DNA of 15,529 nucleotides. It comes from a bacterium. GTDB lineage: Bacteria; Methylomirabilota; Methylomirabilia; CAVQYV01. This document shows, one piece after another, positions 1,143 to 15,529 of this stretch (its first letter is position 1; each line of letters starts with the position of its first letter). The notes beneath the pieces are model-generated. The model made no database searches, was not told the origin of the DNA, and was given only the letters and a program-made list of their open reading frames with translations. The DNA lies in assembly GCA_043800755.1 (NCBI GenBank), contig JAZDMQ010000097.1:1-15529 (forward strand). The letters are read 5' to 3'. The position numbers and the translations under genes were made by a program.

Positions 1143-1803
1143 AGGCACAAAGGGGGAGGAGCTTGCACTTCCCACAGAGGGGTTTCGCGGGCCGGCAGAT
1201 CAGGCGGCCATGTCTTACCAGATGGAGGTGAAGGGAGTAGGTCAGCTCGGGCGGGGCCTGTCGCTGCAGCTTCTCTTGCATCTGCTCCCGACCCTCCCTT
1301 CCATCTGCCCCCACCAGCCGGCTGATCACCCGAAAGATGTGGGTGTCTACCGGAAACGCCGGCCGGCCCAGGGAAAATAGCATCACGCAGGCGGCGGTCT
1401 TGGGACCTACCCCCTTGAACCTCCTCAGATAAGACCACGCCTCCCCATCGGAGAGCTGCTTCAGGAAGTCGAGGCTCAACTCCCCCCGCTCTCGATAGAT
1501 CTCCTCCAGCAGGGACTTGATCCTCCCCGCCTTGATCTGCGCCAGGCCCCCTACCCGGATGGTCCCTTCGATCTCCGAGAGGGGCGCCCTTCGGGCCGAC
1601 TCCCAGGCGGGCCATCGCTGCCGCAGCGCGAAAAATGCCCTGCCTGAGTTAGTGTCAGTGGTGTTCTGGGAGAGGATGGTGAGAATGAGCTCATCGAGGG
1701 GAGGACGGGCAGGCTTCGGGGAGGACGGTCCCCATTGCCCGTGCAGCAGCCCTTCTATCCGGGAAAGGCCCTTCCTGGTTATTGGTCTCGGCTGGCCTCT
1801 CAT
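1096..1803 (-). CDS. nth: Endonuclease III family DNA glycosylase/AP lyase (HhH-GPD, 4Fe-4S)
   Basis: LILTILSQNT, HhH motif FKGVGPKTA with catalytic Lys, PVDTH catalytic Asp, C-terminal C-x6-C-x2-C-x5-C (CRPAKPLCGKCKLLPLC); purine-rich RBS upstream. Confidence 0.92.
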   Translation of the reverse strand: MRGQPRPITRKGLSRIEGLLHGQWGPSSPKPARPPLDELILTILSQNTTDTNSGRAFFALRQRWPAWESARRAPLSEIEGTIRVGGLAQIKAGRIKSLLEEIYRERGELSLDFLKQLSDGEAWSYLRRFKGVGPKTAACVMLFSLGRPAFPVDTHIFRVISRLVGADGREGREQMQEKLQRQAPPELTYSLHLHLVRHGRLICRPAKPLCGKCKLLPLCAYENGLPGSEKSARGI

Positions 1804-1859
1804 GGGAATTGGTCCCTCTTCCTCTCCTGACCCGCGGTGGACTCAGGGGAAAACAACCC

Positions 1860-1888
1860 TTGACATTCGACCATTTAGAGAATAACAT
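1860..1888 (+). promoter_or_regulatory. Sigma70-type promoter for the DUF1858-cysE unit
   Basis: TTGACA (1860-1865), 17-nt spacer, TAACAT (1883-1888), in the AT-richer divergent intergenic region. Confidence 0.8.
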
Positions 1889-1934
1889 AAAGCGAGCAAT
1901 GTCCCATTAGAGGCCAATCGCGGGGAGGTGCAAG

Positions 1935-2147
1935 ATGAAAATCACCAAAGAGATGACCATCGAGGATGTGGTCACCAACTATCCGGAGACGATCAAGGTC
2001 TTCATGCGGGCCGGACTGGGGTGCTTAGGCTGTTCCGCCGCGCGCTTCGAAAACATCGAACAGGGCGCTCAGGTTCATGGGATCGACATCGATCAATTGA
2101 TCTCGGACCTCAACCAGATCTCGGAAAAGGAACCTACCAAGGCCTGA
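1935..2147 (+). CDS. DUF1858 / hybrid-cluster-protein-associated redox disulfide domain protein (70 aa)
   Basis: MKITKEMTIEDVV..YPET..VF...GLGCLGC....ENIEQGA.VHGID pattern with a CxxC; strong RBS GGGGAGGT. Confidence 0.9.
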   Translation: MKITKEMTIEDVVTNYPETIKVFMRAGLGCLGCSAARFENIEQGAQVHGIDIDQLISDLNQISEKEPTKA

Positions 2148-2194
2148 GGGCCTCATCGCCGCCAAAGGGCAATGAAAAAGGGCCGTAGGGCTAA

Positions 2195-2221
2195 TCCCCG
2201 CAAAATCCTGCGGGGGACTTT
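2195..2221 (+). terminator. GC-rich stem-loop between DUF1858 and cysE (weak terminator/attenuator or stabilising hairpin)
   Basis: TCCCCGCA-AAATCC-TGCGGGGG (8-bp stem with one G-U pair) followed only by ACTTT. Confidence 0.35.
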
Positions 2222-2236
2222 CATAGGGAGGACTGC

Positions 2237-2902
2237 TTGTTTAGCCGCTTGAGGGCGGATATCAAGGCCACCTTCGATCGAGATCCAGCTGCGCGATCTG
2301 TCCTCGAGGTGCTCTTCTGCTATCCCGGCCTCCATGCCATTTCTCTTCACCGCCTCGCCCATTGGCTCTGGAGGCACCATCTCTATTTCCTCGCCCGTTT
2401 CCTCTCTCACCTCTCCCGGTTTCTCACCGGAATCGAGATCCATCCCGGGGCCCAGATCGGCCCTGGATTCTTCATTGACCACGGGATGGGGGTGGTCATC
2501 GGAGAGACCGCTGAGATCAGTGAAAACGTCACCATGTACCACGGGGTCACCCTCGGGGGCACGAGCTGGAAAAAGGAAAAGAGGCATCCCACCATCGGAA
2601 ACAATGTGGTCATTGGGGCAGGGGCGAAGATCTTGGGTCCGATCAAGATCGGGGATGGCAGCCGCGTCGGCTCCGGGTCGGTGGTCCTGAAGGATGTCCC
2701 TCCCAATTCCGTGGTGGTGGGCATCCCCGGAAGGGTGACCTACCGAGAGGGCAAGCGGATTGAGGAGATGATCGGGCTCGATCCCCATGACCTGCCCGAT
2801 CCCGTGCTCCAGGCGATCCACTGTATCTTAGATCGGATGCAGGATCTGGAAAAGAGGATCGAAGAGGTCAGAGAACAGTACAAGTCCGTTCCCATCGGAT
2901 AA
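2237..2902 (+). CDS. cysE: Serine O-acetyltransferase
   Basis: DPAARS..EV...YPGLHA...[35 protein letters not shown]...KRHPT, hexapeptide repeats; TTG start with GGGAGG RBS. Confidence 0.96.
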
Positions 2903-4147
2903 TCAGAGCCTTTCCCCCTCCCCCTTCCCCTCCAAAAGCTCGGAGACTTTCACCAACCGATATCCCCTCTCCCGCAGGCCCACGATGATCTCCCCCAACT
3001 TCTCGTGCACCCGATCCCGGGTGCGAGGGGTGCCGAGGTGCATGAGCACGATCCCTCCATTGGCCCCATCGCCATATCCTAAGATGCGATTCTGCACCTC
3101 CTGCGCGCTGCAGTAAATCTTCAACGAAGGATCTGCCACCCAATCCCGGCTATCGAGGCTCTTCTTCTTCCGATAATCAGAGGTCCAGGAGATATGCTGG
3201 TATCCTAACTCCTTGGCCCATCTCCGGAGAGTGGCATTCTGCTCCCCATAGGGGGCCCTCCAGAACGGCGCCATCTTCTCGCCGGTCAGGTCAGCAAAGA
3301 GTTCCTCCGCCCCTTTCAACTCCTGCCGGAGAAATCTCCGGTCCACCCGAGAGAGCAATTCATGCCGGGCATTGATGGCAAAGGTGGTCAGGTGCGGGTG
3401 ATCGGTGGTGTGATTCGCGATCTCGTGCCCATCGGCCACCATCTGCCTCACCAGCTCCGGATGGCGTCGAATGAACTCTCCGCTCAAGAAGAAGGTAGAT
3501 GAGGTCCCTTTCTCCCGCAAGGTCTGGAGGATCTCCGGGGCGACATTCGCCTCCCCCCCGCCATCGAAGGTCAGGGCGATCTCCCGGCGGTGGAGGGATC
3601 CTCGGGAGATATCCGGCGCCGCATCCAATTCGCCTTCGCCTGCGACCTTTCCTTCTCGGAACCCCCAATTCTCCAGGGGCGTCCGCTGGGGGATAGAGGC
3701 GACCTGCTTCCCCCGGGGGTCGGTCCCAGGAGAAGCAGATGAAGGGGCAGCGGGGCTCATCTGATGGGGAGGGACAATGGTAGCCCTGGTTGAGGCACTT
3801 GAACCGGAATTAAGGTAGAAGGCCTCTCCGGGAAAGGATCGGACGAATCCCTTGGGGGAGGAAGGACTGGGCTGGGAGATGAAGACCATAATCGATAGGA
3901 GGGCAAGGAAGATGATGGGGACCGTCCGCCTCCGGGTTTCCTGGGCAGGGATCCCCGGCATATCCGAGGCAGCGCTGAGGCGGCGCAGGCCTCGGTGGAG
4001 GAAATCCTGGACCCCATGAAGGACAACGCAATGGCGGGAGCAGAAGAGATGATGCAAAGCCCGGATCTGACAAGCGGGACATAGGGGCTTATGGCAGCGG
4101 TAACACTTCCTTCTGGCCTCCCTCTCCGGGTGTCGATGGCACTGCAT
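2903..4147 (-). CDS. Membrane-anchored polysaccharide deacetylase (CE4/NodB) with N-terminal B-box-like zinc finger
   Basis: N-terminal CHRH...CYRCHKPLCPAC...FCSRHC; hydrophobic helix TVPIIFLALLSIMVFIS; Pro/Ser linker; CE4 motifs IALTFDGG, HEIANHTTDH, RAPYG, DSRDW, IVLMH. Confidence 0.88.
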   Translation of the reverse strand: MQCHRHPEREARRKCYRCHKPLCPACQIRALHHLFCSRHCVVLHGVQDFLHRGLRRLSAASDMPGIPAQETRRRTVPIIFLALLSIMVFISQPSPSSPKGFVRSFPGEAFYLNSGSSASTRATIVPPHQMSPAAPSSASPGTDPRGKQVASIPQRTPLENWGFREGKVAGEGELDAAPDISRGSLHRREIALTFDGGGEANVAPEILQTLREKGTSSTFFLSGEFIRRHPELVRQMVADGHEIANHTTDHPHLTTFAINARHELLSRVDRRFLRQELKGAEELFADLTGEKMAPFWRAPYGEQNATLRRWAKELGYQHISWTSDYRKKKSLDSRDWVADPSLKIYCSAQEVQNRILGYGDGANGGIVLMHLGTPRTRDRVHEKLGEIIVGLRERGYRLVKVSELLEGKGEGERL

Positions 4148-4150
4148 GCC

Positions 4151-5200
4151 TTACATTTCCAGTATCTTCTTTTTGAGGATGAGCATCTCCAAGGCCATGG
4201 AGGCCTTAATCATGGCCTTCCGTAAATCCTCGAAATCACCCAACAGGAGCGACTTCTCCCCGTTATCCCCGTAAAGCAGGCAAACCACCTTCCCTTTGAT
4301 GGTCAGGGGGAAGGCAATCGCCTCTTGGGGGATCTCGCCGCCCATCATCTCCAGCAGGTGGATATTCTGCGGCACCGGCAAGAGGGCGCCATGATAGAAC
4401 TCCCCGCCATCGATCATGGTGCGAAAGATGGAGGGCTGGTGCAAGGGCAGTTGAATCTGCGCCATCATCTCATCGGCCAACTGGCCCCCAACCGCCTTCC
4501 ACCCGATAATGACATTTGACTTCACAACGAAGAGGGCAACCCGCTTCAGATCGGCCGCGGCAAAATCCAGGATGATCGAGGCTATCTCCTCTCGATCCTT
4601 CGCCTCTACCAGTCGCTGGCTAATCCTCTCCAGGGCTCCCACGGCCTCCGGGGCCGGCTGGGCCTTCCCAGCCTCGGGGAGGGCGGGGCCTTCGCCCCTG
4701 GCCGACACCGGCACCTCCTCCGGTATCACACCCCGCTCCCCGGAAAGGACAGAGATGAACCTGATCGGCCGTTGGATGCCGAAGTATCTCTCCAGGGCGT
4801 AAAGGAGGCGGAGTTCGGAGGCGATGTAGGGGACAATCTCGTACCCGGTGATGAAGCGAACCTCATCGATCACGCGCAGATCGGTCGGATTGACCATGGC
4901 CAGGTGCAGCCTCTTGGGCTCCCGGTCAATGGGAATCACCATGTACCTCTCGGCCATCTCTGGCGTAATGGTCTCCACGATCTCCCGCTTGATGCCCTCG
5001 AAGGCCTTGGGGTCTGCATAGGGAACCCCGAAGACCCTGCCCAGGAACTTGACTAAAGATTCCTCCGTGAGATAGCCCAGCTCAATGAAATTGGTGCCCA
5101 GCCGGCCCCCATAAATCACCTGTCGCTCTAAGGCCTTCGCTAACTGCTGGTCGGTGATCAATCGTTCTCTCACCAGGGCTTCTCCCAATCTCAACGCCAT
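4151..5200 (-). CDS. MshEN/T2SSE-N-terminal domain protein (predicted c-di-GMP receptor) with GAF-like C-terminal domain and no ATPase
   Basis: Tandem RLGEALVRERLITDQQLAKALERQ - 5 aa - RLGTNFIELGYLTEESLVKFL; then the T2SSE_N signature (VIPI...LHLAMVNPTDL..IDEVRFITG); no Walker A. Start re-placed at ATG 5200 (RBS GGGGAGG). The GAF-like call is an inference. Confidence 0.85.
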   Translation of the reverse strand: MALRLGEALVRERLITDQQLAKALERQVIYGGRLGTNFIELGYLTEESLVKFLGRVFGVPYADPKAFEGIKREIVETITPEMAERYMVIPIDREPKRLHLAMVNPTDLRVIDEVRFITGYEIVPYIASELRLLYALERYFGIQRPIRFISVLSGERGVIPEEVPVSARGEGPALPEAGKAQPAPEAVGALERISQRLVEAKDREEIASIILDFAAADLKRVALFVVKSNVIIGWKAVGGQLADEMMAQIQLPLHQPSIFRTMIDGGEFYHGALLPVPQNIHLLEMMGGEIPQEAIAFPLTIKGKVVCLLYGDNGEKSLLLGDFEDLRKAMIKASMALEMLILKKKILEM

Positions 5201-5228
5201 GCCAGCCTCCCCCCATCCTGACCTGGAT

Positions 5229-5966
5229 TTAGATACCCCCAAAGTGAAACAGATAATTGACGTATTGGGATAGGACCCGAAAAGAGTCAGTGAGGATCAG
5301 GATCCCAACGACGATCAAGAAAACGCCGCTGACCAAGGAAATGGCCCTGATGTATCTGCGGGCTCGATCGAAGTAGATCAGGAAAGAATTCAAGGCAAGG
5401 GAGGAGAGGAAGAAGGGGATGCCCAGCCCAAGTGAATACGCCCCCAGGAGGGCTATCCCGGACGCCAGGCTCTGCGTAGTGCTGGCGTAGAGGAGAATGG
5501 CCGAGAGGATGGGCCCCACGCAGGGGGTCCACCCCAGGGCGAAGGTCGCTCCCACCAGCAACGAGCCCAAGTATCCGGTGGGCTTGGTCTTGATGTGGAT
5601 CCGCTTCTCCCGTTGAAGGAAATTCAGCTTGATCAGCCCGGAGATGAAGAGCCCGAAGAGGATGATCAAGGCCCCACCCACTTTGGTGAAGATCCATTGA
5701 TAATCCAAAAGAAACTGGCCCAGGAGGCTGACGGAAGCCCCCAGGGCCACAAAGACGATCGAGAACCCCGATATAAAGCAGACGGAGTTCACCAGGGTCA
5801 CTCGTCGCAGGATGCTCTTCTTCTCTCCCTCCGTCAGCTCCGCCAAAGAAAGGCCAGTGATGAAACAAATATAGGCGGGGATCAGGGGGAGCACGCAGGG
5901 GGAGACAAAGGAAAGGAGCCCTGCGGAAAAAGCAACAAGATAGGACACATCCCCTGCGGACCCCAT
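5229..5966 (-). CDS. ccdA: Cytochrome c biogenesis protein CcdA (DsbD transmembrane domain)
   Basis: AGLLSFVSPCVLPLIP and ALGWTPCVGPIL motifs, about six TM helices; GGAGG-type RBS region. Confidence 0.94.
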   Translation of the reverse strand: MGSAGDVSYLVAFSAGLLSFVSPCVLPLIPAYICFITGLSLAELTEGEKKSILRRVTLVNSVCFISGFSIVFVALGASVSLLGQFLLDYQWIFTKVGGALIILFGLFISGLIKLNFLQREKRIHIKTKPTGYLGSLLVGATFALGWTPCVGPILSAILLYASTTQSLASGIALLGAYSLGLGIPFFLSSLALNSFLIYFDRARRYIRAISLVSGVFLIVVGILILTDSFRVLSQYVNYLFHFGGI

Positions 5967-5996
5967 ATGGATTCACCTCTCGGAGGAAGATAAGGC

Positions 5997-6875
5997 TTAA
6001 AGAAGACCGGCCTTCTGCAAAATCCCCTTAATCTTTTCCTTGACTTCGCTCTTCGCCGGAAGAAGGGGTGGGCGCGGATCCCCTCCGTAGTAGCCAAGCA
6101 GATCCATCGCCGCCTTCAACCCCGGAACGCCGAAGCTCACAGTCACCGCCCCATTCACCGGCAACATCTTCAGCTGCAAATCCCGCGCCTCTTTCAGCTT
6201 TCCTGCATCATAGAGCCTCTGGATCTCCACCGCCTCCTCGGGGGCCACATTGGCCATGGCCACAACGCCGCCCACTGCCCCCAGGCAAAGGCCGGTAAAT
6301 AGGACGCTGGCGGTTCCCACCATCACATCAAATCCGGCGGGACATAGCTTGATATATTGGGCGAACAGGGGCATGTCCGCAGAACTGTCTTTCATCCCCA
6401 CAATGTTCTGATGCTCGGCCAGCTTGGCCACCGTCTCCGCATCGATGCTGACCCCGGTGAACTTGGGCACATTGTAGATCATGATCGGAATCTTGGAGGC
6501 ATCCGCCACCGCCCGGAAATGGGTGATCATCTCTTCCGCCTTCATCAAGGACTTGAAGTAAGAGGGCGTGATGATCAAGGCCAACTCGGCACCGATCTTC
6601 GCTGCCTTATTGGTCAACTCGATCGTCTCCCAGGTCGACTCGCATCCGGTGCCCGCAATCATTTTCAGTGGGCTGGGGATGTTCTCCCTTGCCACCTCCA
6701 GGATCTTGATCTTCTCCTTTTCCGCGAGAAATACAAATTCGCCATTGGATCCTAAAACCAGATAACCGGAAAGCCCCGTCGTATTCCACTTCTGCAGATT
6801 GGAGGCCAGCATATCGCAAGCAACCTCTCCGTTTTTGAAGGGAGTGGGAATAGGCGGGAAAATACCTTTGGGCAT
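5997..6875 (-). CDS. Dihydrodipicolinate synthase/N-acetylneuraminate lyase family class I aldolase, 4-hydroxy-2-oxoglutarate aldolase (HOGA)-like
   Basis: GIFPPIPTPF, GSNGE, IITPSYF, IYNVP, Schiff-base VGMKDSS. Start re-placed at ATG 6875 (RBS AGAGGAGG). Confidence 0.88.
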   Translation of the reverse strand: MPKGIFPPIPTPFKNGEVACDMLASNLQKWNTTGLSGYLVLGSNGEFVFLAEKEKIKILEVARENIPSPLKMIAGTGCESTWETIELTNKAAKIGAELALIITPSYFKSLMKAEEMITHFRAVADASKIPIMIYNVPKFTGVSIDAETVAKLAEHQNIVGMKDSSADMPLFAQYIKLCPAGFDVMVGTASVLFTGLCLGAVGGVVAMANVAPEEAVEIQRLYDAGKLKEARDLQLKMLPVNGAVTVSFGVPGLKAAMDLLGYYGGDPRPPLLPAKSEVKEKIKGILQKAGLL

Positions 6876-6888
6876 CGTTTCCTCCTCT

Positions 6889-7062
6889 AACAATGAAATG
6901 GAAGGTACATCGCAAGCACCATCCCCGCAGCGAGCCTGCAGGTCGGTGAGCGAATGAGGTGTTGGGAAAGGCCCTCCCCTGAAGGCATCTCCGCTGTGGG
7001 GAAAGGCGTCAAATCGCCCTTCTCCGCGGAGGAAGGGGCCTTCGCGGTGAGCCGCTAAAGCC
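6889..7062 (-). ncRNA. Putative structured cis-regulatory 5' leader of the aldolase gene (unassigned)
   Basis: Long nested stem 6968-7042, two smaller hairpins, and a stem (6900-6924) followed by AUUUCAUUGUU just before the RBS; lies downstream of a sigma70-like promoter. No known family recognised. Confidence 0.35.
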
Positions 7063-7067
7063 TCTTC

Positions 7068-7096
7068 TTTTTATCTCATGGCATCTTCCTTGTCAA
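7068..7096 (-). promoter_or_regulatory. Internal sigma70-type promoter for the aldolase-ccdA-MshEN-deacetylase genes
   Basis: Minus strand TTGACA (7096-7091), 17-nt spacer, TAAAAA (7073-7068); the -10 element lacks the final T. Confidence 0.6.
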
Positions 7097-7108
7097 GACG
7101 ATTTTGGC

Positions 7109-7654
7109 TTAACACCCCTTCCTTGGCATCTCCAGGGCCATCACATAGGCATCTTCGGGGGGGAATTGGTAATAGCCTTTCCGGATCCCCACCACCTCGA
7201 AACCCAGGCCTCGATATAGGTCCTGGGCAGCACTATTCGAGGCCCTGACCTCCAGGAACACTTTCCTCACCCCCCGTTGGCTCCCTGACTGAAAGGCGTT
7301 CTCCATGAGCAGCCGCCCGATCCCCTTCCTTCGCCAGCCAGGGTGGACGGCTAAATTGGCGACCTGCATCTCGTCCCAGACCACCCAACAACAGATATAC
7401 CCCAAGACCCCTGGGTCACGCACAGGGGCGTCCGACCCTCTCCTGCGAACCTTGGCCACAAAGCAGGAGGAGATGGGCGTTGTCAGGAACTCCTGGCGGA
7501 ACATCTCCGCGGTCCAGGGGCAAGAGAAGGATGAGGCCTCGATCCCCAAGACCTCTTCCAGGTCGGACTCCTGCATGGGCAGGGTTTCGACCCCCTCCCA
7601 CCCCTCTCCCGAATCCTTCCTGCCGGGCCTCAGTCCCCGATCTTTATGCCCCAC
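7109..7654 (-). CDS. rimI: Ribosomal protein S18-alanine N-acetyltransferase (GNAT)
   Basis: IE..SFSCPW, ANLAVHPGWRRKGIG, VFLEVRASNSAAQDLYRGLGF...GIRKGYY...EDAYVM; follows tsaB as is typical. Start is probably GTG 7654 (GGAG RBS) or ATG 7576; the ORF-track extension to 7960 is overlap with tsaB. Confidence 0.9.
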   Translation of the reverse strand: MGHKDRGLRPGRKDSGEGWEGVETLPMQESDLEEVLGIEASSFSCPWTAEMFRQEFLTTPISSCFVAKVRRRGSDAPVRDPGVLGYICCWVVWDEMQVANLAVHPGWRRKGIGRLLMENAFQSGSQRGVRKVFLEVRASNSAAQDLYRGLGFEVVGIRKGYYQFPPEDAYVMALEMPRKGC

Positions 7655-8325
7655 TTGATCTCCGCCTCCGAACGACGGATATAACGCGGCACCAAGGTCG
7701 CCAGATCGTCCCTCTCCCCCCGGATCAAACGCTCCCTCCCCATCTCGGCCACCTGGGAGGCACGGACATTCCCCACCGCCAGGGGCGCAAAAATGGCCTT
7801 CTCTCCCAGGATTTCCCTGATCTGTCCCGAGTGCTCGGTCGCCCCGTCTCCCAGGAAGACCGTCGGCTCCCCGATTCGCTTGGCCACCACCTCGGGGGGG
7901 GACACTGTCTCTTCCTCCATCTCCATCAAATGCCCTCCCTTGAACCGATACAGGGCCCAATAGACCTCCTTTTTTCGGGCAATGATCATGGGACAGATAG
8001 CATAGGCACAGAAAGGAAGGTTTCTGGCCATGGCCGGCAGGGTGGGAATGCCCACCAAAGGGAGATCGGAGGAGAGGGAAAATCCTTTGGCGGAGGCCAA
8101 TCCAATCCGCAGCCCGGTAAACGATCCCGGACCCACCGCCACTGCGATCCCGGAAAGGTCTCGAAAAGTGAGTTCCGTGTCCTGCAGCAGGCGATCAATG
8201 GAGGGCAATAGCCTCTCGGAATGGGTAGCCTTGGAATGCAGGCTATACTCGGCGATCAGTCCTTCATCCCCCATCAGAGCGACGCCACCTTCCGACGTGG
8301 AGGTATTGATCCCTATGACGATCAT
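7630..8325 (-). CDS. tsaB: tRNA threonylcarbamoyladenosine (t6A) biosynthesis protein TsaB
   Basis: IGINTST, HSERLLP.ID.LL, IAVAVGPGSFTGLRIG, ARKKEVY, L.PRYIRRSEAE. Confidence 0.95.
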   Translation of the reverse strand: MIVIGINTSTSEGGVALMGDEGLIAEYSLHSKATHSERLLPSIDRLLQDTELTFRDLSGIAVAVGPGSFTGLRIGLASAKGFSLSSDLPLVGIPTLPAMARNLPFCAYAICPMIIARKKEVYWALYRFKGGHLMEMEEETVSPPEVVAKRIGEPTVFLGDGATEHSGQIREILGEKAIFAPLAVGNVRASQVAEMGRERLIRGERDDLATLVPRYIRRSEAEIKWGIKIGD

Positions 8326-9648
8326 CTACGCTCCTTTGGGGCTTCGGGGCTGGAGCAGAATCCGCAACAGGGAAGCGACACCATTGACCGGAGAAATGCT
8401 TTGCCCGCTCTCCCGGCTCAATTGCGGGAGTCGGACATCGTCAAGAAAGGCGTCCCCCTCGTCCCTCAGGACACTCTCGGGGATGAGGACCTCTCGCCCG
8501 CCTCCCTTCTCTCTCAAAAAGTCCCGGAAGTCCTTCCCCGGCAGGAGGCCGGCGACGCTGACGCTGGAGCCAAAGAGTGAATTGGGAATAGGAACCGCCT
8601 CCACCTGTAACCTGCGAATCTCATTGAGCCGATCCACCACCGGTCCCAGGACGCCAAAGGCCAGCCTTCCCGTCAGGAGAAGAAAGGATCGCGGATCCGG
8701 CAGGGAGGTAGGCAGAGACCTCTCCCGCCTTCGAAATTCAGTTAGGAACCGGCACGACAAACCCACTCCATTCTCCAACTGAGGAAAGCCCTCATAGGTT
8801 CGGGGAGGAGGAAAGGGCCTTCCCGCCAGGAGGTAGATCTCATCTGCCAGGTGCAGAAAATAGTCTCCGCCGCCCCGGCGGAATTGGGCCCGGAGGCGTT
8901 CTGATCGCTCCACGATCTCCTCTGCCCCGGTCCGGCTCATCAAAGAGAGGGGGAATAAACCCTGACGGTGGTCGGTGAGACCCACCGGGACTAAAGATAA
9001 GGATTGGGCATAGGGACGCAGGGAGGCCAAATCCTGGATGGTCTTCTCCAGGGCAAGACCGTCATTCAGGCCGGGACAGATCACCACCTGCAGGTGCATC
9101 TGGATGTGAGCCGCAGCCAGCCTCCGCAATTGCCGGAGGATATCCGGGGCCTTGGGATTACCCAGGAGAAAACGCCGAAGGCCCAGGTCGCTGGCATGAA
9201 CGGAGATGAAGAGGGGGCTGAGGCGCTGTTCCGCGACCCGGCTCCAATCCCCTTCCGAGAGATTGGTGAGGGTGACATAATTGCCATGGAGGAAGGAGAA
9301 ACGATAGTCCTCATCCTTATGGTAGAGGGAGCGGCGCAGGCCCGGGGGCATCTGATCCACAAAACAGAAGAGGCACCGATTGTTGCAGGATCTGATGGGA
9401 AAGCCCTCAAACTCCAACCCCAATCCCTCGTCCCACTCCTTCCGAATTCTCACCTCCCGCAGGCCCCCGGATTCGTCGAGGATGCGGAGCCTCACCACCC
9501 TCTCTGTTAGGAGAAAGCGATAGTCGATCTCATCCCGCAGATCAAGGCCATTGATCGATAGGATCTTTTGCCCTGCCGCGATCCCTAACTTCGAGCCGAT
9601 GCCCCGGGGTGAGATCTTGCTCACCACCAGGCCTGCAGATCTTTCCAT
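8326..9648 (-). CDS. DUF512 family putative radical SAM Fe-S protein with N-terminal PDZ-like domain
   Basis: PDZ-like N-terminus (I.P.GI..KLGI..G.KILSING), CNNRCLFCFVDQMPPGLR.SLY.KDEDYRFSFLHGNYVTLTN, VPVGLT, YEGFPQLENGVG. Confidence 0.92.
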   Translation of the reverse strand: MERSAGLVVSKISPRGIGSKLGIAAGQKILSINGLDLRDEIDYRFLLTERVVRLRILDESGGLREVRIRKEWDEGLGLEFEGFPIRSCNNRCLFCFVDQMPPGLRRSLYHKDEDYRFSFLHGNYVTLTNLSEGDWSRVAEQRLSPLFISVHASDLGLRRFLLGNPKAPDILRQLRRLAAAHIQMHLQVVICPGLNDGLALEKTIQDLASLRPYAQSLSLVPVGLTDHRQGLFPLSLMSRTGAEEIVERSERLRAQFRRGGGDYFLHLADEIYLLAGRPFPPPRTYEGFPQLENGVGLSCRFLTEFRRRERSLPTSLPDPRSFLLLTGRLAFGVLGPVVDRLNEIRRLQVEAVPIPNSLFGSSVSVAGLLPGKDFRDFLREKGGGREVLIPESVLRDEGDAFLDDVRLPQLSRESGQSISPVNGVASLLRILLQPRSPKGA

Positions 9649-10191
9649 CTAATGAACCGACTGGGTATTGAGGGATTTCGCCCCGGTCCAGATGTAATGG
9701 AGGCCCGAGCTTATGGTGAAGACGGCGACCAGAAGGGGAGAGAGGAAGCGAGGCATAAAGAAATGGCCAAAGATATCGCGTACCAGCGCATCGAACACCG
9801 CAAATAGTTGGAGCACGGTGGTCATCTTTCCCAGGATGGTGGGCGAGACCATCAGGTTCCCGGTGGTGATGTAACGAACCACCGAGCCCAGGACTAGGAT
9901 CAAGTCCCGAGAGATGACCAGGATCACCAACCAGAGAGGAAGCATCCCTAAGAAGGAAAGGGTGACGAAGGTCGAGACCAGAAGGAGCTTATCCGCCAGG
10001 GGATCAAGGATGGTCCCCAACTGGGTCTTCTCCTTGCGGACCCGGGCGAAGAACCCGTCCAGGGCATCGGTGATCCCCGCTAAAAAGAAGAGGCCCAGAG
10101 CCGACTTTTTGAGGTCATAGCCGAGGAGGATCACGATAAGGGGGATCATCAGGATTCGCAGGATGGTCAGCCGATTGGAGAGATTTAGCAC
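9649..10191 (-). CDS. pgsA: CDP-alcohol phosphatidyltransferase (PgsA-like; a CMP-forming cardiolipin synthase cannot be excluded)
   Basis: NLSNRLTILRI, family signature TDALDGFFAR...TQLGTILDPLADKLL, ISRD; GTG start. Confidence 0.85.
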   Translation of the reverse strand: MLNLSNRLTILRILMIPLIVILLGYDLKKSALGLFFLAGITDALDGFFARVRKEKTQLGTILDPLADKLLLVSTFVTLSFLGMLPLWLVILVISRDLILVLGSVVRYITTGNLMVSPTILGKMTTVLQLFAVFDALVRDIFGHFFMPRFLSPLLVAVFTISSGLHYIWTGAKSLNTQSVH

Positions 10192-10205
10192 CGATCAATT
10201 CCTTT

Positions 10206-10985
10206 CTAATTCGAACTGCGAATCCCCTCATCCCGCTCCTGGTTCCACGCCACCCACTCTTCCTCCCCCGCCTCCGTGGTGATCTTCTCCGGCTTGCCCG
10301 GCACCCCCTGGGGGGAGATGTAGATCTGATGCACGGCCTCTACGATCTGGGTCCACTCCTCCATGGATACCTCGTGAAATGGGGAGGGCACCTCGACCGG
10401 ACCCGAGACTTCATGGGGTGCGGACACCTCTGGCGGAGACCCAACCTCCTTGGGAGGAGAGCCGACGCTGATGGCTCCCTCGTAGACCTTGATCACGGTC
10501 GATTTATCCTCGTTGAGGCTCAGGCGATAGACGGTGGCCCGGGTGCCTGCGATGGCGGTCTGGCTCTGAATCTCAAAAGTGGATGCGGGGGCGATCATCT
10601 TGTTCACATTGGCCCAGATCTTACCCAGCAAGAGACGGATCCGGGTGTGCGACTGTCTGTTGCGTGGGCTTCCTTTCAACTGCACCAGGACGAAGGTGGT
10701 CGCTTCTGAAAAGCGCACCACGCCGCGGTCATCAAGGGTAAGTTCCAGACGAGTCCCCTCATGCGCCCGCACCCGGTCTCCTTCTTTCAACACGGCCTTC
10801 AGGGCCAGTGGCTGCCAGGAGGGCGCTCCGGCCCGCTGGACCTCTGCTTTTCCCTGCAAATAGGTCACAGTGGCGGATCGGGCTTGGAGCTGATCTCCCT
10901 CAGCCCAGACAATCCCAGATGCAAGAAACGCGAACAAGAGAGGTAGTATTATCAAGCCTCGATATACTCTTCGTCTGCAAGGCAC
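10206..10985 (-). CDS. Exported FecR-domain protein
   Basis: ATVTYLQGKAEV, LKEGDRVR, L.LGKIWANV, FEIQSQTAIAGTRAT.Y, VYEG.I.V. GTG 10985 has an AAGGAGG RBS 5 nt upstream and gives a signal peptide (RRRVY-hydrophobic-VWA|EG). The ORF track starts at 11054. Confidence 0.8.
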   Translation of the reverse strand: MPCRRRVYRGLIILPLLFAFLASGIVWAEGDQLQARSATVTYLQGKAEVQRAGAPSWQPLALKAVLKEGDRVRAHEGTRLELTLDDRGVVRFSEATTFVLVQLKGSPRNRQSHTRIRLLLGKIWANVNKMIAPASTFEIQSQTAIAGTRATVYRLSLNEDKSTVIKVYEGAISVGSPPKEVGSPPEVSAPHEVSGPVEVPSPFHEVSMEEWTQIVEAVHQIYISPQGVPGKPEKITTEAGEEEWVAWNQERDEGIRSSN

Positions 10986-11100
10986 AGCTGCCTCCTTCTG
11001 CTCCATTCCCCGCGATTGCCCCGGTGGAAATTGCCCCGGACCAGCGGCCTCCATCCTTCCGCGCAGCCAAGCGTTCGGGCAAGGACCTGCCTCCGCCCAC

Positions 11101-12081
11101 TCACTTCCCCAAGAGCCTCACCACATCCTTCTCCCTGAATCCTTGCCCACTCTGAGGGATGGCCACCGAGTATTTCTCCCTGACCTGAGTGATGAGCAGC
11201 TCGCCAATGGGGCTTTCATCATATCCCAGGGTCAGCCCGGTGGATGGATCTATAATCGGCTCTCCCATACTGTAGGCGGTCAGCTTAAGCCCCTCGGTCA
11301 GGCCCACCTCGGAGCCCGCGTTGACATAAACCTTCTCCCCCAAAACCCTGGCGATCCTCCCTGACCAGGGGATCCTCTCCAGCTTTTGGACGATCTTGTT
11401 GCCCAAATCATCGATGGCGCCGCGGAGGGCCTTTCCCACCACGGTCTCATCGTAGCTCGTGCCCCCTCCCGCCCCTGCCACCTTGAGAGTCCTTGAGGTA
11501 TATTGGCTCTCCCCGCTCTCCGCCATGAGGATCTGCGCCGTCGTGGTATCGATCAAGCGTACATCCACCACCGCTCGAACCGTATGAGACTTGGACCCCA
11601 CTACGGGTCCCACCTCAAAGCCTCCCTCCTGAACCCCGAACTCGGAAACGGCCCCGGTGACAATGGCATTCAAACCCAAAATGCTGCCGGCAGCGACTGC
11701 GGTGTTTGGATTGATGACCCCGGACATACTCAGGCCCTGCTCTCTCAATACCTTGTCCAGTCCCTCCCGCTCCACCAGGATGAATTGGCCGGTGTTCAGC
11801 AAGGTGGTGACCAACATCTCGGAGGCGGAATGGCCGAGCCGGCGCGCTCCGTAATGCGTCTTGTTTTCAAAATCCATCACCGCGATGCGCTTCTTCACCC
11901 CGGTGGTGGTAAGTCGCGGCAACCTCTCATCCGCCTGGGCGCGCAATGCCTCCTGTGACCTGTCGGACTGAGGCTTCTCCCCGGATTTGGCCTCTTTTGC
12001 GCCTCCGGCGCAGCCTAGAATTAGAACCAGACCCATCAACACCAAGATTGAGCAGAGGGGCCTTTTCCTCTCCTCCGTCAT
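11101..12081 (-). CDS. CsgG/HfaB-family lipoprotein with C-terminal FlgT_C-like beta domain
   Basis: Lipobox ILGC at residue 24 from ATG 12081; RIAVMDFENK, F.LVERE.LD.VL.EQ, IVTGAVSEFG, VDVRLIDTTT; C-terminal VYVNAGSEVGL..G...IIDPSTG..LG. An alternative ATGA-coupled start lies at 12147. Confidence 0.82.
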   Translation of the reverse strand: MTEERKRPLCSILVLMGLVLILGCAGGAKEAKSGEKPQSDRSQEALRAQADERLPRLTTTGVKKRIAVMDFENKTHYGARRLGHSASEMLVTTLLNTGQFILVEREGLDKVLREQGLSMSGVINPNTAVAAGSILGLNAIVTGAVSEFGVQEGGFEVGPVVGSKSHTVRAVVDVRLIDTTTAQILMAESGESQYTSRTLKVAGAGGGTSYDETVVGKALRGAIDDLGNKIVQKLERIPWSGRIARVLGEKVYVNAGSEVGLTEGLKLTAYSMGEPIIDPSTGLTLGYDESPIGELLITQVREKYSVAIPQSGQGFREKDVVRLLGK

Positions 12082-12143
12082 CCTCCTCCCTAATTCGAGG
12101 GAGAGAAATCGCGAGGTCTTCTCCCAAATCATGGCGGTTTCGA

Positions 12144-13328
12144 TCATCGCACCGCCCGAAGGTCGATCTTGTGAGGGGAGAAACCGATGATCTCTACCCG
12201 AAACGCTCCAAACTCCTTGAGGGACACCTCGTCTGCCAGATTCTGAACATCCCCGGACAGGTCCACATCGATTCGCGCGACATTGGCCTGAAAGCTCCGC
12301 TGGTGGATGCCCTTCACCCCTCTGACTTGCTCTTTGAGTATCTGTTTGAATTTCGCAAGTTCCCGGAAACTCAAACCCGAGATCACCAATTGCACCAGGG
12401 TCGTCCCCCCCACCTCTTTTCCCCATTGCTGCGTGATCTGTTCGATCAGCAGCGAAGCGACCTTTTCTCCCGCCCTTTTCAAGGCCTCGTTCCCTGCGGT
12501 CAGCTCATCGATATAGACCGCGGCCGCGGAATCGCTTAGGCTGGCCAAGGTCTCTCCCGTATCGGCGCGAATAGCCTTCACCGTCACCTGGGCCTGAGCC
12601 GACTTCATCCCCGAAAGATTGAGAGCCTTCAAATCCTTCACTGGCGTGGGCCTCGCCGCCGCCTTGCCTAAGAGGATCACCTCCGCCCCAAACTCTGAGG
12701 CCAGGGCCTTAGCCCCTTTTTCATTCCCCTCGATCAAGAGGAGGGCCTGATCCCGGCTGACATTCCTCTTCACCGCCGCCTGGTCCACGAAAGTGAAGCC
12801 CTTCTCCAAGAATTTCTGAGTGAGGACGCTCTCCACCTGGGAGAGATCTGACCAGTGCTGGAGCTGGTCGTCGGCGCCCAAGTTCTTCTCCTCGATCAAG
12901 ACCATCAGCCGCGGCTTGTGCACTCGAGTGAGTAAGATCCTCAGGGCGCTCAAGTCGTCCTGCAAGGGGCCGGTGGCAACCGAGGCCTCCACCCGCACCC
13001 GCATCAGTTGGTCGTCCCGTTGCTCTTTGACGATTCGATAACCCTTGATGTAGCCATGGGCCTGGGAGTAGATGCGGTCGCTCACCAATTGGAAGTTCTC
13101 TACCAGGGTCTGGGAATCGATCATGGTCCCTACCGCCTCCTCCACGCTTTTGCGGAGGGCATCCTCGGTGGCCGCATCCCTCGCCACCGCCAGGTTATTC
13201 TCCAGGATCACGGCCACCCCCTCCGCCTGAATCGACTTCAGCTCCTCCGCGGGAGAGGGGGACCAGAGGAAGAGGAGGGCAAGCAGCAGAGAAAAAAGGA
13301 CTGCATGGTTCGGCTTGGACAGGGTCAT
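12144..13328 (-). CDS. Exported protein with FlgT N-terminal (LPP20-like) domain, CsgG/TolB_N-like middle domain and small C-terminal alpha/beta domain
   Basis: Signal peptide ending SPA|EE; AEGVA...ARDAATEDALRKSVEEAVG..IDSQTLVENFQLVSDRIYSQAHGYI; PRLMVLIEE; GAEVILLGKA. Start re-placed at ATG 13328 (GGGAGAGG RBS). Confidence 0.78.
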   Translation of the reverse strand: MTLSKPNHAVLFSLLLALLFLWSPSPAEELKSIQAEGVAVILENNLAVARDAATEDALRKSVEEAVGTMIDSQTLVENFQLVSDRIYSQAHGYIKGYRIVKEQRDDQLMRVRVEASVATGPLQDDLSALRILLTRVHKPRLMVLIEEKNLGADDQLQHWSDLSQVESVLTQKFLEKGFTFVDQAAVKRNVSRDQALLLIEGNEKGAKALASEFGAEVILLGKAAARPTPVKDLKALNLSGMKSAQAQVTVKAIRADTGETLASLSDSAAAVYIDELTAGNEALKRAGEKVASLLIEQITQQWGKEVGGTTLVQLVISGLSFRELAKFKQILKEQVRGVKGIHQRSFQANVARIDVDLSGDVQNLADEVSLKEFGAFRVEIIGFSPHKIDLRAVR

Positions 13329-13372
13329 GGCCTCTCCCATAGGAATGCAGCAAGGCATAAGGGAGGAAGTTC

Positions 13373-13420
13373 AGGGCAGGAGAGAGGTAGAATAGAACCT
13401 TGCTTCCCCCCTCCTGTCCT
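13373..13420 (-). other. Intergenic stem-loop after the TPR/SLH gene
   Basis: Minus strand AGGACAGGAGGGGGG pairs with CCTCTCTCCTGCCCT (15 bp, one mismatch, two G-U); no U-tract follows. Confidence 0.5.
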
Positions 13421-13436
13421 CCGTTCTGGTCGTCAC

Positions 13437-14585
13437 TTATTTCAATTCATCCTTCATGCGCCTGATCACCAAGAGCGCATCTGCTCCGGACAGCGATTCC
13501 TCCAGGCCGAAGTAGCCATCCAGCTTGGCCTCCATCAGGCCCCGCGTGGTGCAGACCATGATCGAATTGAAGGCATAATGATCTGACCGCACATCGGGGA
13601 AGGGCGAAACCGCCCCGATGAATTTGGTGGCCAGCTTCTCATCCCCGCTCACCTTGATGAGGATGTCCTCCACCATCATGGCGTAATTGGCCTTGGAGAT
13701 CACCATCCCCGGGGCAAAGGTATGATCGGGGAAGGGTTCCAGGCCTCTGATCCCTAAGTTGATGGCAGCGTCGATGTCCGCCTTCAGGGGATGGTTGACA
13801 ATATCCATCGCCGGCGGGGTCTTGGTGATGGTATCGGCGGCCAAGGCAGTCCCCTCTGGCGGCTTGAAGGAGGCGTCGTACTCCCTGGTCTTTCCCGCCT
13901 TATACAGTTTTTCCAGGTTGAGCTCCTCGATGAAGAGGGCCGCTACATCCGCTCGGGTGATCTTGTCGATGAGGGCAATCTGCTTCCCGATCTTGGTGCC
14001 CGGCGCCGCTCGCTGGATCTTCTGCACCAGGGCCCATTCCTGATTTGCCTCCCCCACGAAGTCTTTGTTCAGATCGAGCACCTTCTTGAAAGCAGCGGCC
14101 GCCTTATCGAACTCAAAGGCAACCTTGTAGGCCTTTCCCATATGGAAATAGAGCTCGGGGCTGGCGGCGTCCTTTTTCTTGCCCGCCTCGAATTCGTCCT
14201 CTGCCTCCTTCAACCAATCCCCAGCCCGCTGCATCGAGTAGAGCCGGATCATTCCCACATGGGCATATACCCCGTCCAGGCCCTTCGCCTTTTTCATCGA
14301 CTCGAAGGCCTTGTCAAAGTCTCCCTTAAAGCCCTGCACCAGCCCAACGCCCATGTAGGCCTTGCCATACTTGGGATCCAGGGCCTTGGCCCGCTCAAAC
14401 TCCACCAGGGCATTGTCGTATTCGCCCTTATCCAGAAACTTCATCCCGTTGTTGAAGTGGTGGTCGGGGTTGTCCATTACCGAAACCGGCTTGGCGGGTT
14501 CCTTGCCTGCACACCCCACAAAGCTGAAGGCCGTCAAGGCCAAGAGAATTAGCAAGAGGAAAATTCCGTTTCTCGTTCTGTTCAT
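13437..14585 (-). CDS. TPR-repeat lipoprotein with C-terminal S-layer homology (SLH)-like repeats
   Basis: Lipobox FVGC; TPR patterns (HFNNGMKFL..GEYDNALVEFERAKALDPKY; LYFHMGKAY...FDKAAAAFKKVLDLN); SLH-like ITRADVAALF, DIVNHP...FPDHTFAP...ISKANYA and FPDVRSDHYAF...GLM...DGYF. Confidence 0.82.
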   Translation of the reverse strand: MNRTRNGIFLLLILLALTAFSFVGCAGKEPAKPVSVMDNPDHHFNNGMKFLDKGEYDNALVEFERAKALDPKYGKAYMGVGLVQGFKGDFDKAFESMKKAKGLDGVYAHVGMIRLYSMQRAGDWLKEAEDEFEAGKKKDAASPELYFHMGKAYKVAFEFDKAAAAFKKVLDLNKDFVGEANQEWALVQKIQRAAPGTKIGKQIALIDKITRADVAALFIEELNLEKLYKAGKTREYDASFKPPEGTALAADTITKTPPAMDIVNHPLKADIDAAINLGIRGLEPFPDHTFAPGMVISKANYAMMVEDILIKVSGDEKLATKFIGAVSPFPDVRSDHYAFNSIMVCTTRGLMEAKLDGYFGLEESLSGADALLVIRRMKDELK

Positions 14586-14634
14586 AGTCGCGATACCCCC
14601 GTTGTGAGGGCCCTCAGGCAGGGGCCCATGCCCA

Positions 14635-15529
14635 TCAATCCACTACGATCATCACCCGGCATTTCTCCAAAAAGCTTAAGTTGGCCCCTGCCGAATGGAT
14701 AGTTGCTGCGTCCGCATTGCTGATGACGACATCGGTCTTGCTCGTCCCGGAGGTCCTCACTCCTTTCACCGTAAGGGGATTGTTGGTCACGCGAGGATTG
14801 GCTTGGGCGGCAGCCAACTCCTTGGAATAGCCAGCCATCCCCTGCTGGATTGCATAATCCCGCTTTACGAAGGCCGAACCGTAAACCTCTCTCCCTTCTT
14901 CATTCAGGATCCTGGGCACCATGGCGGGCCTGACATTGAGTCCTCGGGAATCCACGACCAATCCCGTCAGCATGGGGGAGGCAGGGGCCGCAGGGGCAAT
15001 TGCCGAGCCCGGCGCCGCGGGGGCAGCCGGGGCTGATCCGGAGGCAGGAGCCGCGGGAGCCGCTGGCGGCACTACCGGTTGAGCGGGCCCTGCAGGTTTA
15101 GGCAGGAGTTCTTCCGCCAGTTGGCCGGCCAATTTCACCCCAATCGTCACCTCCACAGAGCCATCGGACATGTATTGGGTCTTCATCTCCGACGCCCCGC
15201 GAATAATGCCCTGAACCGCGGTCCGTATACGGTCACTGCTCACAATGAAATTCTCCACCACCGTCTCCGAATCGACCCTGACCCCTTTCAGGGTTTCGAG
15301 GAGATTCCGCTGGGCCACCACCACCGCCGCCCTCTTGGCCATCGCTCGGGCCTGGGCGGCGTTCACTGGATCGCCAGGAGGTGCTCCGATGCCCACTGCC
15401 ATCACCACCCCATTGCTCCAGTCGACCTTTCCGCTATCACCGATATTCTCCACTACATCGGAGACCGAACCGATCAACTGAGCAGATGAGGGAACCCCGG
15501 CCCAGACCAAGAAACCCACCAACACCAGG
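14635..15529 (-). CDS. LPP20-family exported protein with Pro/Ala linker and conserved C-terminal domain; 5' end outside the window
   Basis: Tail of a signal peptide at the window edge; VDWSNGVVMAVGIGAPP...AKRAA...AQRNLLE..KGVRVDSET.V; C-terminal TGLVVDSRGL.V.PAM.PRILNEEG.EVYG...CRVMIVVD. Confidence 0.8.
   Translation of the reverse strand, partial: LVLVGFLVWAGVPSSAQLIGSVSDVVENIGDSGKVDWSNGVVMAVGIGAPPGDPVNAAQARAMAKRAAVVVAQRNLLETLKGVRVDSETVVENFIVSSDRIRTAVQGIIRGASEMKTQYMSDGSVEVTIGVKLAGQLAEELLPKPAGPAQPVVPPAAPAAPASGSAPAAPAAPGSAIAPAAPASPMLTGLVVDSRGLNVRPAMVPRILNEEGREVYGSAFVKRDYAIQQGMAGYSKELAAAQANPRVTNNPLTVKGVRTSGTSKTDVVISNADAATIHSAGANLSFLEKCRVMIVVD
14974..15103 (-). repeat. Low-complexity Pro/Ala linker with imperfect PAAPA repeats (coding)
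   Basis: PKPAGPAQPVVPPAAPAAPASGSAPAAPAAPGSAIAPAAPASP; very GC-rich imperfect DNA repeats. Confidence 0.7.

Follow-up and report, generated by a model that had tools for sequence, protein, structure and literature searches.

The additional rings formed by FlgT and FlgP underlie the high torque of the flagellar motors of Vibrio and Campylobacter, and the origin of their parts is an open question. The H ring of Vibrio (FlgT, FlgP, FlgO; PDB 3w1e, 8z5n) is described as 26 FlgT and 26 FlgP subunits around the L/P rings, and the FlgT ring is reported to have a groove that takes up the tail of FlgP (PMC13626733). For the basal disk of Campylobacter (FlgP, FlgQ; PDB 9hmf), a second report attributes the concentric FlgP rings to a hairpin that is inserted into the SHS2 domain after its helix and before its second strand, and states that ring formation in the FlgP family correlates with this insert (PMC12222027). 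Here, we analyzed a module of five genes, termed G1 to G5, on a DNA stretch of 15,529 nucleotides (the window; contig JAZDMQ010000097.1 of assembly GCA_043800755.1). The window represents one whole contig of a 100% complete, Methylomirabilota-type metagenome-assembled genome of 2.43 Mb and 166 contigs. With a probability of about 0.55, we read the module as coding for a wall-anchored scaffold, possibly ring-like, which would lie under the outer membrane and consist of subunits of the flagellar-ring type.

In several respects the module resembled the Vibrio H ring. SHS2 domains were found in G1 (as in FlgP) and in G3 (as in the N-terminal domain of FlgT), the N and M domains of FlgT were matched by G3 and its M and C domains by G4, and the products appear to be exported proteins, some of them lipoproteins, that would reside close to the outer membrane. 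However, the host lacks a flagellum by the markers given below, the three domains of FlgT are split over two genes, and the C domain of G3 is of a different kind. Furthermore, G1 has no lipidation signal and contains an additional domain resembling D2 of Treponema Tp0624, and the module adds a TPR-SLH lipoprotein (G2) and a FecR-domain protein (G5). Like FlgP of the Campylobacter basal disk, G1 and G3 possess N domains that aligned without gaps to the motor chain 9hmf_C, but both are multi-domain, non-lipidated and non-flagellar proteins. TsaP, which binds peptidoglycan and has been modelled as a ring around the secretin of type IV pili (PDB 3jc8, 6ve2), shares the combination of a wall-binding module with FlgT-type domains, and the C-terminal barrel of G4 matched it at an E-value of 2.3e-6 (orthologue profile A2). 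In TsaP the wall binder is a LysM domain in the same chain, whereas here it would be the separate SLH lipoprotein G2; a Pfam search found no LysM domain in any of the five proteins. Two secretins were detected in the host genome, and one other carrier of the module gave no secretin match. The literature, covered with the subscription journals largely outside, contained nothing on a non-flagellar FlgT/FlgP module and nothing joining LipL46 with FlgT. This agrees with a first-pass annotation of the locus, made from the sequence alone, which knew of no characterized system with this combination.

The same annotation had proposed five co-oriented genes for exported proteins, two of them with lipoboxes and three with signal peptides, one incomplete. 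Both statements held. The open reading frames (ORFs) fill their part of the window (Table 1), and inspection of the translations by eye revealed lipoboxes in G2 and G4 and ordinary signal peptides in G1 (partial), G3 (...SPSPA/EE) and G5 (...IVWA/EG). The CsgG, LPP20 and FlgT folds it had named were all recovered in sequence-profile and structure searches, and Pfam returned the TPR and SLH domains assigned to G2 as well as the FecR domain assigned to G5. The label of G3 as FlgT_N-like was correct in its Pfam match (E-value of 5.8e-9) but too narrow, as G3 is FlgT N+M-like.

The closest structural relationship was observed for G4. Its ORF had been listed with a start at 12426, overlapping G3. 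Translation from position 12081 yielded MTEERKRPLCSILVLMGLVLILGC, a signal peptide with the lipobox LILGC, and this position is most likely the true start. Pfam CsgG was matched with an E-value of 5.1e-31 (108 bits versus a cutoff of 20.8; profile positions 9-207 of 210), in line with the CsgG-like part of the first-pass assignment, while its FlgT_C-like part was recovered by structure. A predicted model of G4 (predicted local distance difference test, pLDDT, of 83.3) was superimposed on the M and C domains of in-ring Vibrio FlgT (8z5n_0) with a Z of 21.9 and a root-mean-square deviation (rmsd) of 2.7 Å over 246 residues, compared to Z values of 14.1 for TolB, 13.3 for PelC and 12.8 for CsgG. 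Foldseek gave the same order (1.9e-16 and 3.4e-16 for FlgT versus 2e-9 for CsgG). Judged by the model, G4 has its closest structural neighbor in FlgT M+C and not in the CsgG pore, and it is predicted in the closed M+C arrangement found in the assembled ring.

The family membership of G4 leads to the main rival explanation, which we consider unlikely. In that case G4 would be an outer-membrane channel of the CsgG/HfaB type, the module would export or anchor an amyloid or a polysaccharide at the cell surface, with G1, G2, G3 and G5 as periplasmic accessories. Besides the Pfam score, it is favored by the G4 orthologue profile A2, which matched CsgG at 4.1e-13, with profile positions 15-167 only, and passed through the first membrane hairpin without a change in length. 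The aligned part was restricted to residues 12-194 of E. coli CsgG, which, going by the layout of CsgG, presumably include the first membrane hairpin and exclude the second. The alignment thus ends before the second hairpin, and G4 of the window is shorter than its orthologues by 5 and 4 residues in the two hairpin regions. Both points argue against a channel, as does the better structural match to FlgT. A further likeness to the CsgG channel and to the CsgG/GNA1162-like clusters of Acinetobacter and Neisseria is the GNA1162-like lipoprotein that is added in loci of relatives. In Acinetobacter baumannii, according to a preprint, a three-gene cluster of this kind is needed for poly-N-acetylglucosamine, Cup pili and biofilm (bioRxiv 10.1101/2021.05.19.444899). 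However, the cluster of the window is without a glycosyltransferase or a candidate substrate gene, G4 carries an extra FlgT-C barrel, and its second hairpin was not alignable. Searches of the host genome for the curlin repeat (Curlin_rpt), CsgE and CsgF gave no match, with the E. coli control scoring for each; curli secretion is probably not the role of the module. Several stand-alone CsgG-family paralogues of G4 were found elsewhere in the same genome (C27:16248-17348; also on C11, C63, C36 and C7), the best being a lipoprotein with 32% identity.

For G3, the AlphaFold model (pLDDT of 82.6) had FlgT at the top of the Foldseek search (4.1e-11 for 8z5n_0 and 9.9e-11 for 3w1e, over about 405 columns). 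A second look by structural alignment showed 223 residues of the N and M domains matched to FlgT 3w1e with a Z of 10.1 and an rmsd of 11.8 Å, and the N domain matched to Lpp20 with a Z of 8.5. For the middle domain (residues 145-311), TolB-N, PelC, CsgG and FlgT-M tied at Z values of 10-11.4, with 11.4 for TolB_N. The last 85 residues formed an alpha/beta domain in the model, unlike FlgT-C. The G3 profile reached FlgO chains only at non-significant E-values of 0.39-0.40, with no FlgO family search carried out. The NCBIfam family LipL46 was matched over nearly the whole length at 2.4e-16, but with 59.4 bits versus a cutoff of 400. The family of G3 is large, with 1,846 cluster representatives at an E-value of 1e-30 or below and 6,463 at 1e-10 or below, which are named in the databases as “flagellar assembly protein T N-terminal domain-containing” or “hypothetical protein”.

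Comparison of G1 with a full-length paralogue and with orthologues showed that only the first stretch of its signal peptide is missing. The signal peptide looks type-I, and a second domain is present besides SHS2. Although Pfam LPP20 was reached only at an E-value of 0.07, the LPP20-like character that had been suggested for G1 was supported by a profile from an alignment of 20 orthologues (A3). With this profile, the N domain matched 9hmf_C of the Campylobacter jejuni motor at 1.4e-10 and Vibrio FlgP (8z5n_2) at 3.9e-7; the former chain is deposited as “Lipoprotein, putative”, and we take it to be FlgP. Both the G1 and the G3 profile ran gapless in HMMER through the part of 9hmf_C that links the SHS2 helix to the strands following it. 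By our own mapping, this segment would be the ring-building hairpin insert. In the monomer model of G3 the stretch was of low confidence (residues 82-87 below a pLDDT of 50). An oligomer prediction for four copies of the G1 N domain (residues 18-145, A3) scored 0.00 versus a mark of 0.42; carried out without controls, it weighs neither way. The C domain of G1 matched residues 130-263 of Treponema Tp0624 (5jir_B) at 2.5e-11, which we take as its domain D2, while a search of the ESM Atlas returned only unnamed clusters at 0.90-0.91. D2 is presented, in a report on Tp0624, as a previously unseen fold adjoining an OmpA-like domain (PMC5104382). The full-length paralogue, of 421 aa and with 47-52% identity, stands alone in the same genome (C82:14905-16170), where its neighbors are a radical-SAM gene and the gene gap. 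KSB1-type orthologues of G1 contain a conserved CP.CGQPWP motif in the linker (A3 columns of about 245-290); the Ala/Pro-rich linker in the window has no Cys.

The candidate wall anchor is G2. Its lipobox (...SFVGC) contains a Cys that was invariant in 20 of 20 orthologues (Cys25). Pfam detected TPR_1 at 1.6e-11 and SLH at 6.4e-5 (23.3 bits versus a cutoff of 20.8), and SLH scored in all 20 orthologues, with a best E-value of 4.4e-15. SLH-mediated wall anchoring typically involves three SLH repeats in tandem; two SLH stretches were found by Pfam in each of three orthologues tested and one in G2 of the window, for which a home-made profile of the last SLH repeat revealed no significant internal copies. 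No other SLH match besides G2 was present in this genome or in the sister genus. From its sequence, the SLH region of G2 is real and conserved. Of the SLH tether that had been proposed, the domain stood, while no enzyme of the type that makes its classical ligand was found, as described below.

G5 matched Pfam FecR at an E-value of 2.8e-12. Its similarity to NCBIfam LipL45 resembled that of G3 to LipL46, at 2.4e-16 with 59.8 bits versus a cutoff of 350; with both scores far below the cutoffs, the Leptospira proteins LipL46 and LipL45 are distant relatives at most. A search of solved structures with the G5 profile gave nothing significant, the best match being ribosomal L14 at 0.077. The FecR domain, together with the conserved place of G5 at the end of the module and its presence near G3 in 19 of the 40 loci described below, would fit an envelope signalling device in which G5 senses and relays like FecR-type anti-sigma factors. 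However, the FecR domain is preceded by nothing except the signal peptide, with no cytoplasmic anti-sigma part, and no gene for a sigma factor or a TonB-dependent transducer was present among the scanned ORFs of the window cluster. We regard such a device as very unlikely.

In the scaffold that we favor, the five products would form one periplasmic assembly beneath the outer membrane. Lipid anchors would keep G2 and G4 in the inner leaflet of the outer membrane, the SLH region of G2 would grip the wall, and its TPR part would dock other subunits. G1, G3 and G4 may oligomerize like their flagellar relatives into a ring, an arc or a lattice, and the Pro-rich linkers of G1 and G5 could bridge the gap between outer membrane and wall. 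Such an assembly might either hold the outer membrane firmly against the wall or serve as a collar for some outer-membrane machine.

Conservation of the module was followed in 79 loci from species-representative genomes, which were obtained via an alignment of G3 relatives (A1) and in which the five proteins were compared by tblastn. The order G1-G2-G3-G4-G5 on one strand was found in 20 loci from several phyla, so that the genes are co-conserved in other genomes. The record titles of these canonical loci named Desulfobacterales, Syntrophaceae, Thermodesulfobacteriota, “Deltaproteobacteria”, KSB1 and “Cytophagia”, once each Pseudomonadota and Actinomycetota, and in several cases only “bacterium”. 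Requiring at least 3.5 kb on each side of G3 dropped 39 loci for short flanks and left 40, of which 13 were canonical and 14 contained all four partners. Several variants were observed. In 10 of the 40 loci a Nitrospirota-type arrangement with at least three tandem short G1-N-like genes was present, Zixibacteria loci were without G2, and Nitrospinota loci had a second G3 and a different order. In Desulfobacterota-type loci, G3 was separated from G4 by an added GNA1162-like lipoprotein, and G4 from G5 by a PEGA protein, and KSB1-type loci had a second CsgG-family gene added.

The chromosomal site was recurrent as well. Co-oriented genes for PgsA (5), DUF512 (6) or Der (9) were found downstream in the 20 canonical loci, in 14 of the 20 overall, and Pfam checks identified MiaA or HflX upstream in 5 of the 20. 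The window matches this site with the order G5-PgsA-DUF512; pgsA starts 14 nt after G5, followed by the DUF512 radical-SAM gene. In the sister genus (G001:C4:580000-599000, about 7388-9475) the order was MiaA-HflX-(G1 remnant)-G2-...-PgsA-DUF512, with syntenic housekeeping neighbors of 59-86% identity. From this order, the module very probably starts with G1, and the DNA missing to the right of the contig probably carries HflX and MiaA rather than further module genes. The gene upstream of G1 was divergent or of a housekeeping type in several distant loci. The suggestion of the first-pass annotation that more module genes may lie beyond the right edge is therefore unlikely to be correct. The recurrence of the PgsA/DUF512/Der string behind the module in distant phyla includes a DUF512 protein (radical SAM with PDZ; the string covers 8326-10191 in the window) that is itself uncharacterized.

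All closest solved relatives of the module are flagellar. In the host genome FHIPEP/FlhA, FlgI and the flagellin N domain had no match, with controls as expected (FlgH was not searched). Together with the curli search above, this extends to the genome, for the markers tested, the earlier remark that no flagellar or curli genes are in view. Another genome with all five genes, from KSB1 (G044, completeness not given), was likewise without FlhA, FlgI, flagellin and curlin. FlhA was present in 25 of 50 carrier genomes, which had been chosen from the 79 for their longer loci. In the two carriers with contigs long enough to be checked, FlhA was located about 200 kb away from the module. The module is thus, from the sequence data, not tied to flagellar loci, and the case that it always sits in such loci did not apply. 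A flagellar accessory, i.e., a variant of H ring or disk that persists here as a relic, would explain the flagellar relatives, the FlhA of half of these carriers and the loss of most of the module in the sister genus. Nevertheless, five intact genes that also appear in RNA-library contigs, in a complete genome without FlhA, FlgI and flagellin and with housekeeping flanks, make this hardly credible, and a variant H ring was rejected for this genome.

Two studies provided RNA libraries (X17 and X18 from one, X19 from the other) with contigs that matched the window at 95-100% identity. X17 covered all 30 bins of the stretch, and X18 and X19 left bins uncovered. Single X17 contigs contained the complete G2 together with part of G1 (13410-14777), bridged G4 and G5 (10831-11904) or bridged pgsA and G5 (9669-10460). 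Coverage of all five genes is consistent with their transcription. At the spacer between G2 and G3, contigs from a single DNA run and from a single RNA run stopped at 13393-13411, one of them with a poly-C loose end.

A number of observations weigh against the proposed wall-anchored scaffold. At the level of the proteins, G1 is without a lipidation signal, whereas FlgP is a lipoprotein, G4 belongs to Pfam CsgG with a profile aligning through the first membrane hairpin of that family, and no single protein of the module combines all three FlgT domains. No match for a CsaB-type pyruvyltransferase (PS_pyruv_trans) was obtained in this genome, in the sister genus or in three genomes with the complete module, with 9 of the 14 control genomes scoring; the ligand classically bound by SLH may therefore be lacking. 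The same genome contains two OmpA-family matches, which are wall binders, so that the module is not the only possible wall link of the cell. The partners also vary. In the 40 flank-filtered loci G4 was found near G3 in 29, G1 in 23, G5 in 19 and G2 in only 18 cases, and none of the four in 8 (an E-value of 1e-10 or below plus coverage was required); four of these eight belong to the Nitrospirota-type variant. The sister genus has kept only G2 intact (76% identity), with G1, G3 and G5 as fragments and G4 gone; its G3 fragment contains an internal TGA, and the distance from G2 to pgsA is about 610 bp versus about 3.2 kb in the window. The rest of the module is therefore dispensable there. Of 41 genomes of the class, only 4 contained a G3 homologue, and the Methylomirabilis-type loci consisted of G3 alone. 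Varying partners and losses together indicate that the module is not essential. As the completeness of the carriers is unknown, the absence of FlhA from half of the 50 is soft, and since the RNA-library contigs carry neither strand nor level and may stem from DNA contamination, their coverage is not proof.

The findings place building blocks of flagellar rings in a conserved operon that is complete in itself and occurs in bacteria lacking flagella. If the scaffold reading is right, it would add an undescribed diderm envelope element in Nitrospirota, Nitrospinota, Desulfobacterota, KSB1, Calditrichota, Methylomirabilota and others, which would be a plausible source for the recruitment of flagellar and pilus collars, and the SLH lipoprotein bears on outer-membrane tethering outside the well-studied Proteobacteria. 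Going further, the module might be an ancient, free-standing housekeeping ring or lattice, fixed by SLH and inherited in many phyla at the MiaA/HflX-module-PgsA/DUF512/Der site. It might later have supplied the outer flagellar rings (H ring, basal disk) as well as the TsaP collar around pilus secretins, with FlgT arising as an SHS2 domain joined to a G4-like M+C protein. We consider this scenario possible, though doubtful. New in this analysis are the module in a complete, flagellum-less Methylomirabilota-type genome, its chromosomal site and its decay in the sister genus, the links to Tp0624-D2 and TsaP, the lack of CsaB and the RNA-library coverage.

Table 1. Location of the five genes, their domains and the G2-G3 spacer in the window (~, approximate domain border).
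Feature	Position	Strand	Description
G1-G5	10206-15529	minus	five co-oriented ORFs, intergenic gaps of 46-78 nt
G1	15528-14635	minus	N terminus cut by the contig end; signal peptide, SHS2, Ala/Pro-rich linker, C domain
G1, SHS2	~15109-15426	minus	
G1, C-terminal domain	~14638-14976	minus	conserved
G2	14585-13437	minus	382 aa; lipoprotein, Cys25
G2, TPR	~14016-14471	minus	
G2, SLH region	~13440-13988	minus	C-terminal
G2-G3 spacer	13359-13436	minus	intergenic; G-run and G/C-rich imperfect inverted repeat, from sequence
G3	13358-12144	minus	404 aa
G3, SHS2 N domain	~12927-13250	minus	
G3, middle domain	~12405-12926	minus	TolB_N/CsgG/FlgT-M-like
G3, C domain	~12147-12401	minus	alpha/beta
G4	12081-11101	minus	326 aa, revised start; lipoprotein
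G4, FlgT-M/TolB_N-like domain	~11371-11913	minus	
G4, FlgT-C/TsaP-like domain	~11104-11370	minus	beta-barrel
G5	11054-10206	minus	282 aa; signal peptide, Pro-rich repeat linker, conserved W..WN..RD tail
G5, FecR	~10470-10778	minus	

Related genes were also found in other contexts of the class. In a Methylomirabilota metagenome-assembled genome (G037:C27:6000-25000, 488-9828) a solitary G3 homologue was located between a glutamine synthetase gene and genes for an AbiEii-like nucleotidyltransferase and a 1,950-aa RHS-repeat protein, with no other module genes nearby. A high-GC relative (G006:C50:14000-33000, about 2073-13720) carried a different cluster of the same parts. This cluster contained a Peptidase_C14 (caspase-domain) protein fused to a G1-like region and a long ORF whose N-terminal part is G3-like, together with DUF4384+CsgG-like, G1-like and TPR+SLH proteins, a transglutaminase and a GNA1162-like lipoprotein. 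In the window itself, nearly every long ORF is on the minus strand. Among these, 4151-5242 encodes a 363-aa protein with a lone MshEN domain (E-value of 2.6e-19) without the ATPase part, adjoined by a polysaccharide deacetylase gene at 2903-4147, the product of which has a Cys/His-rich N terminus that looks zinc-ribbon-like by eye.

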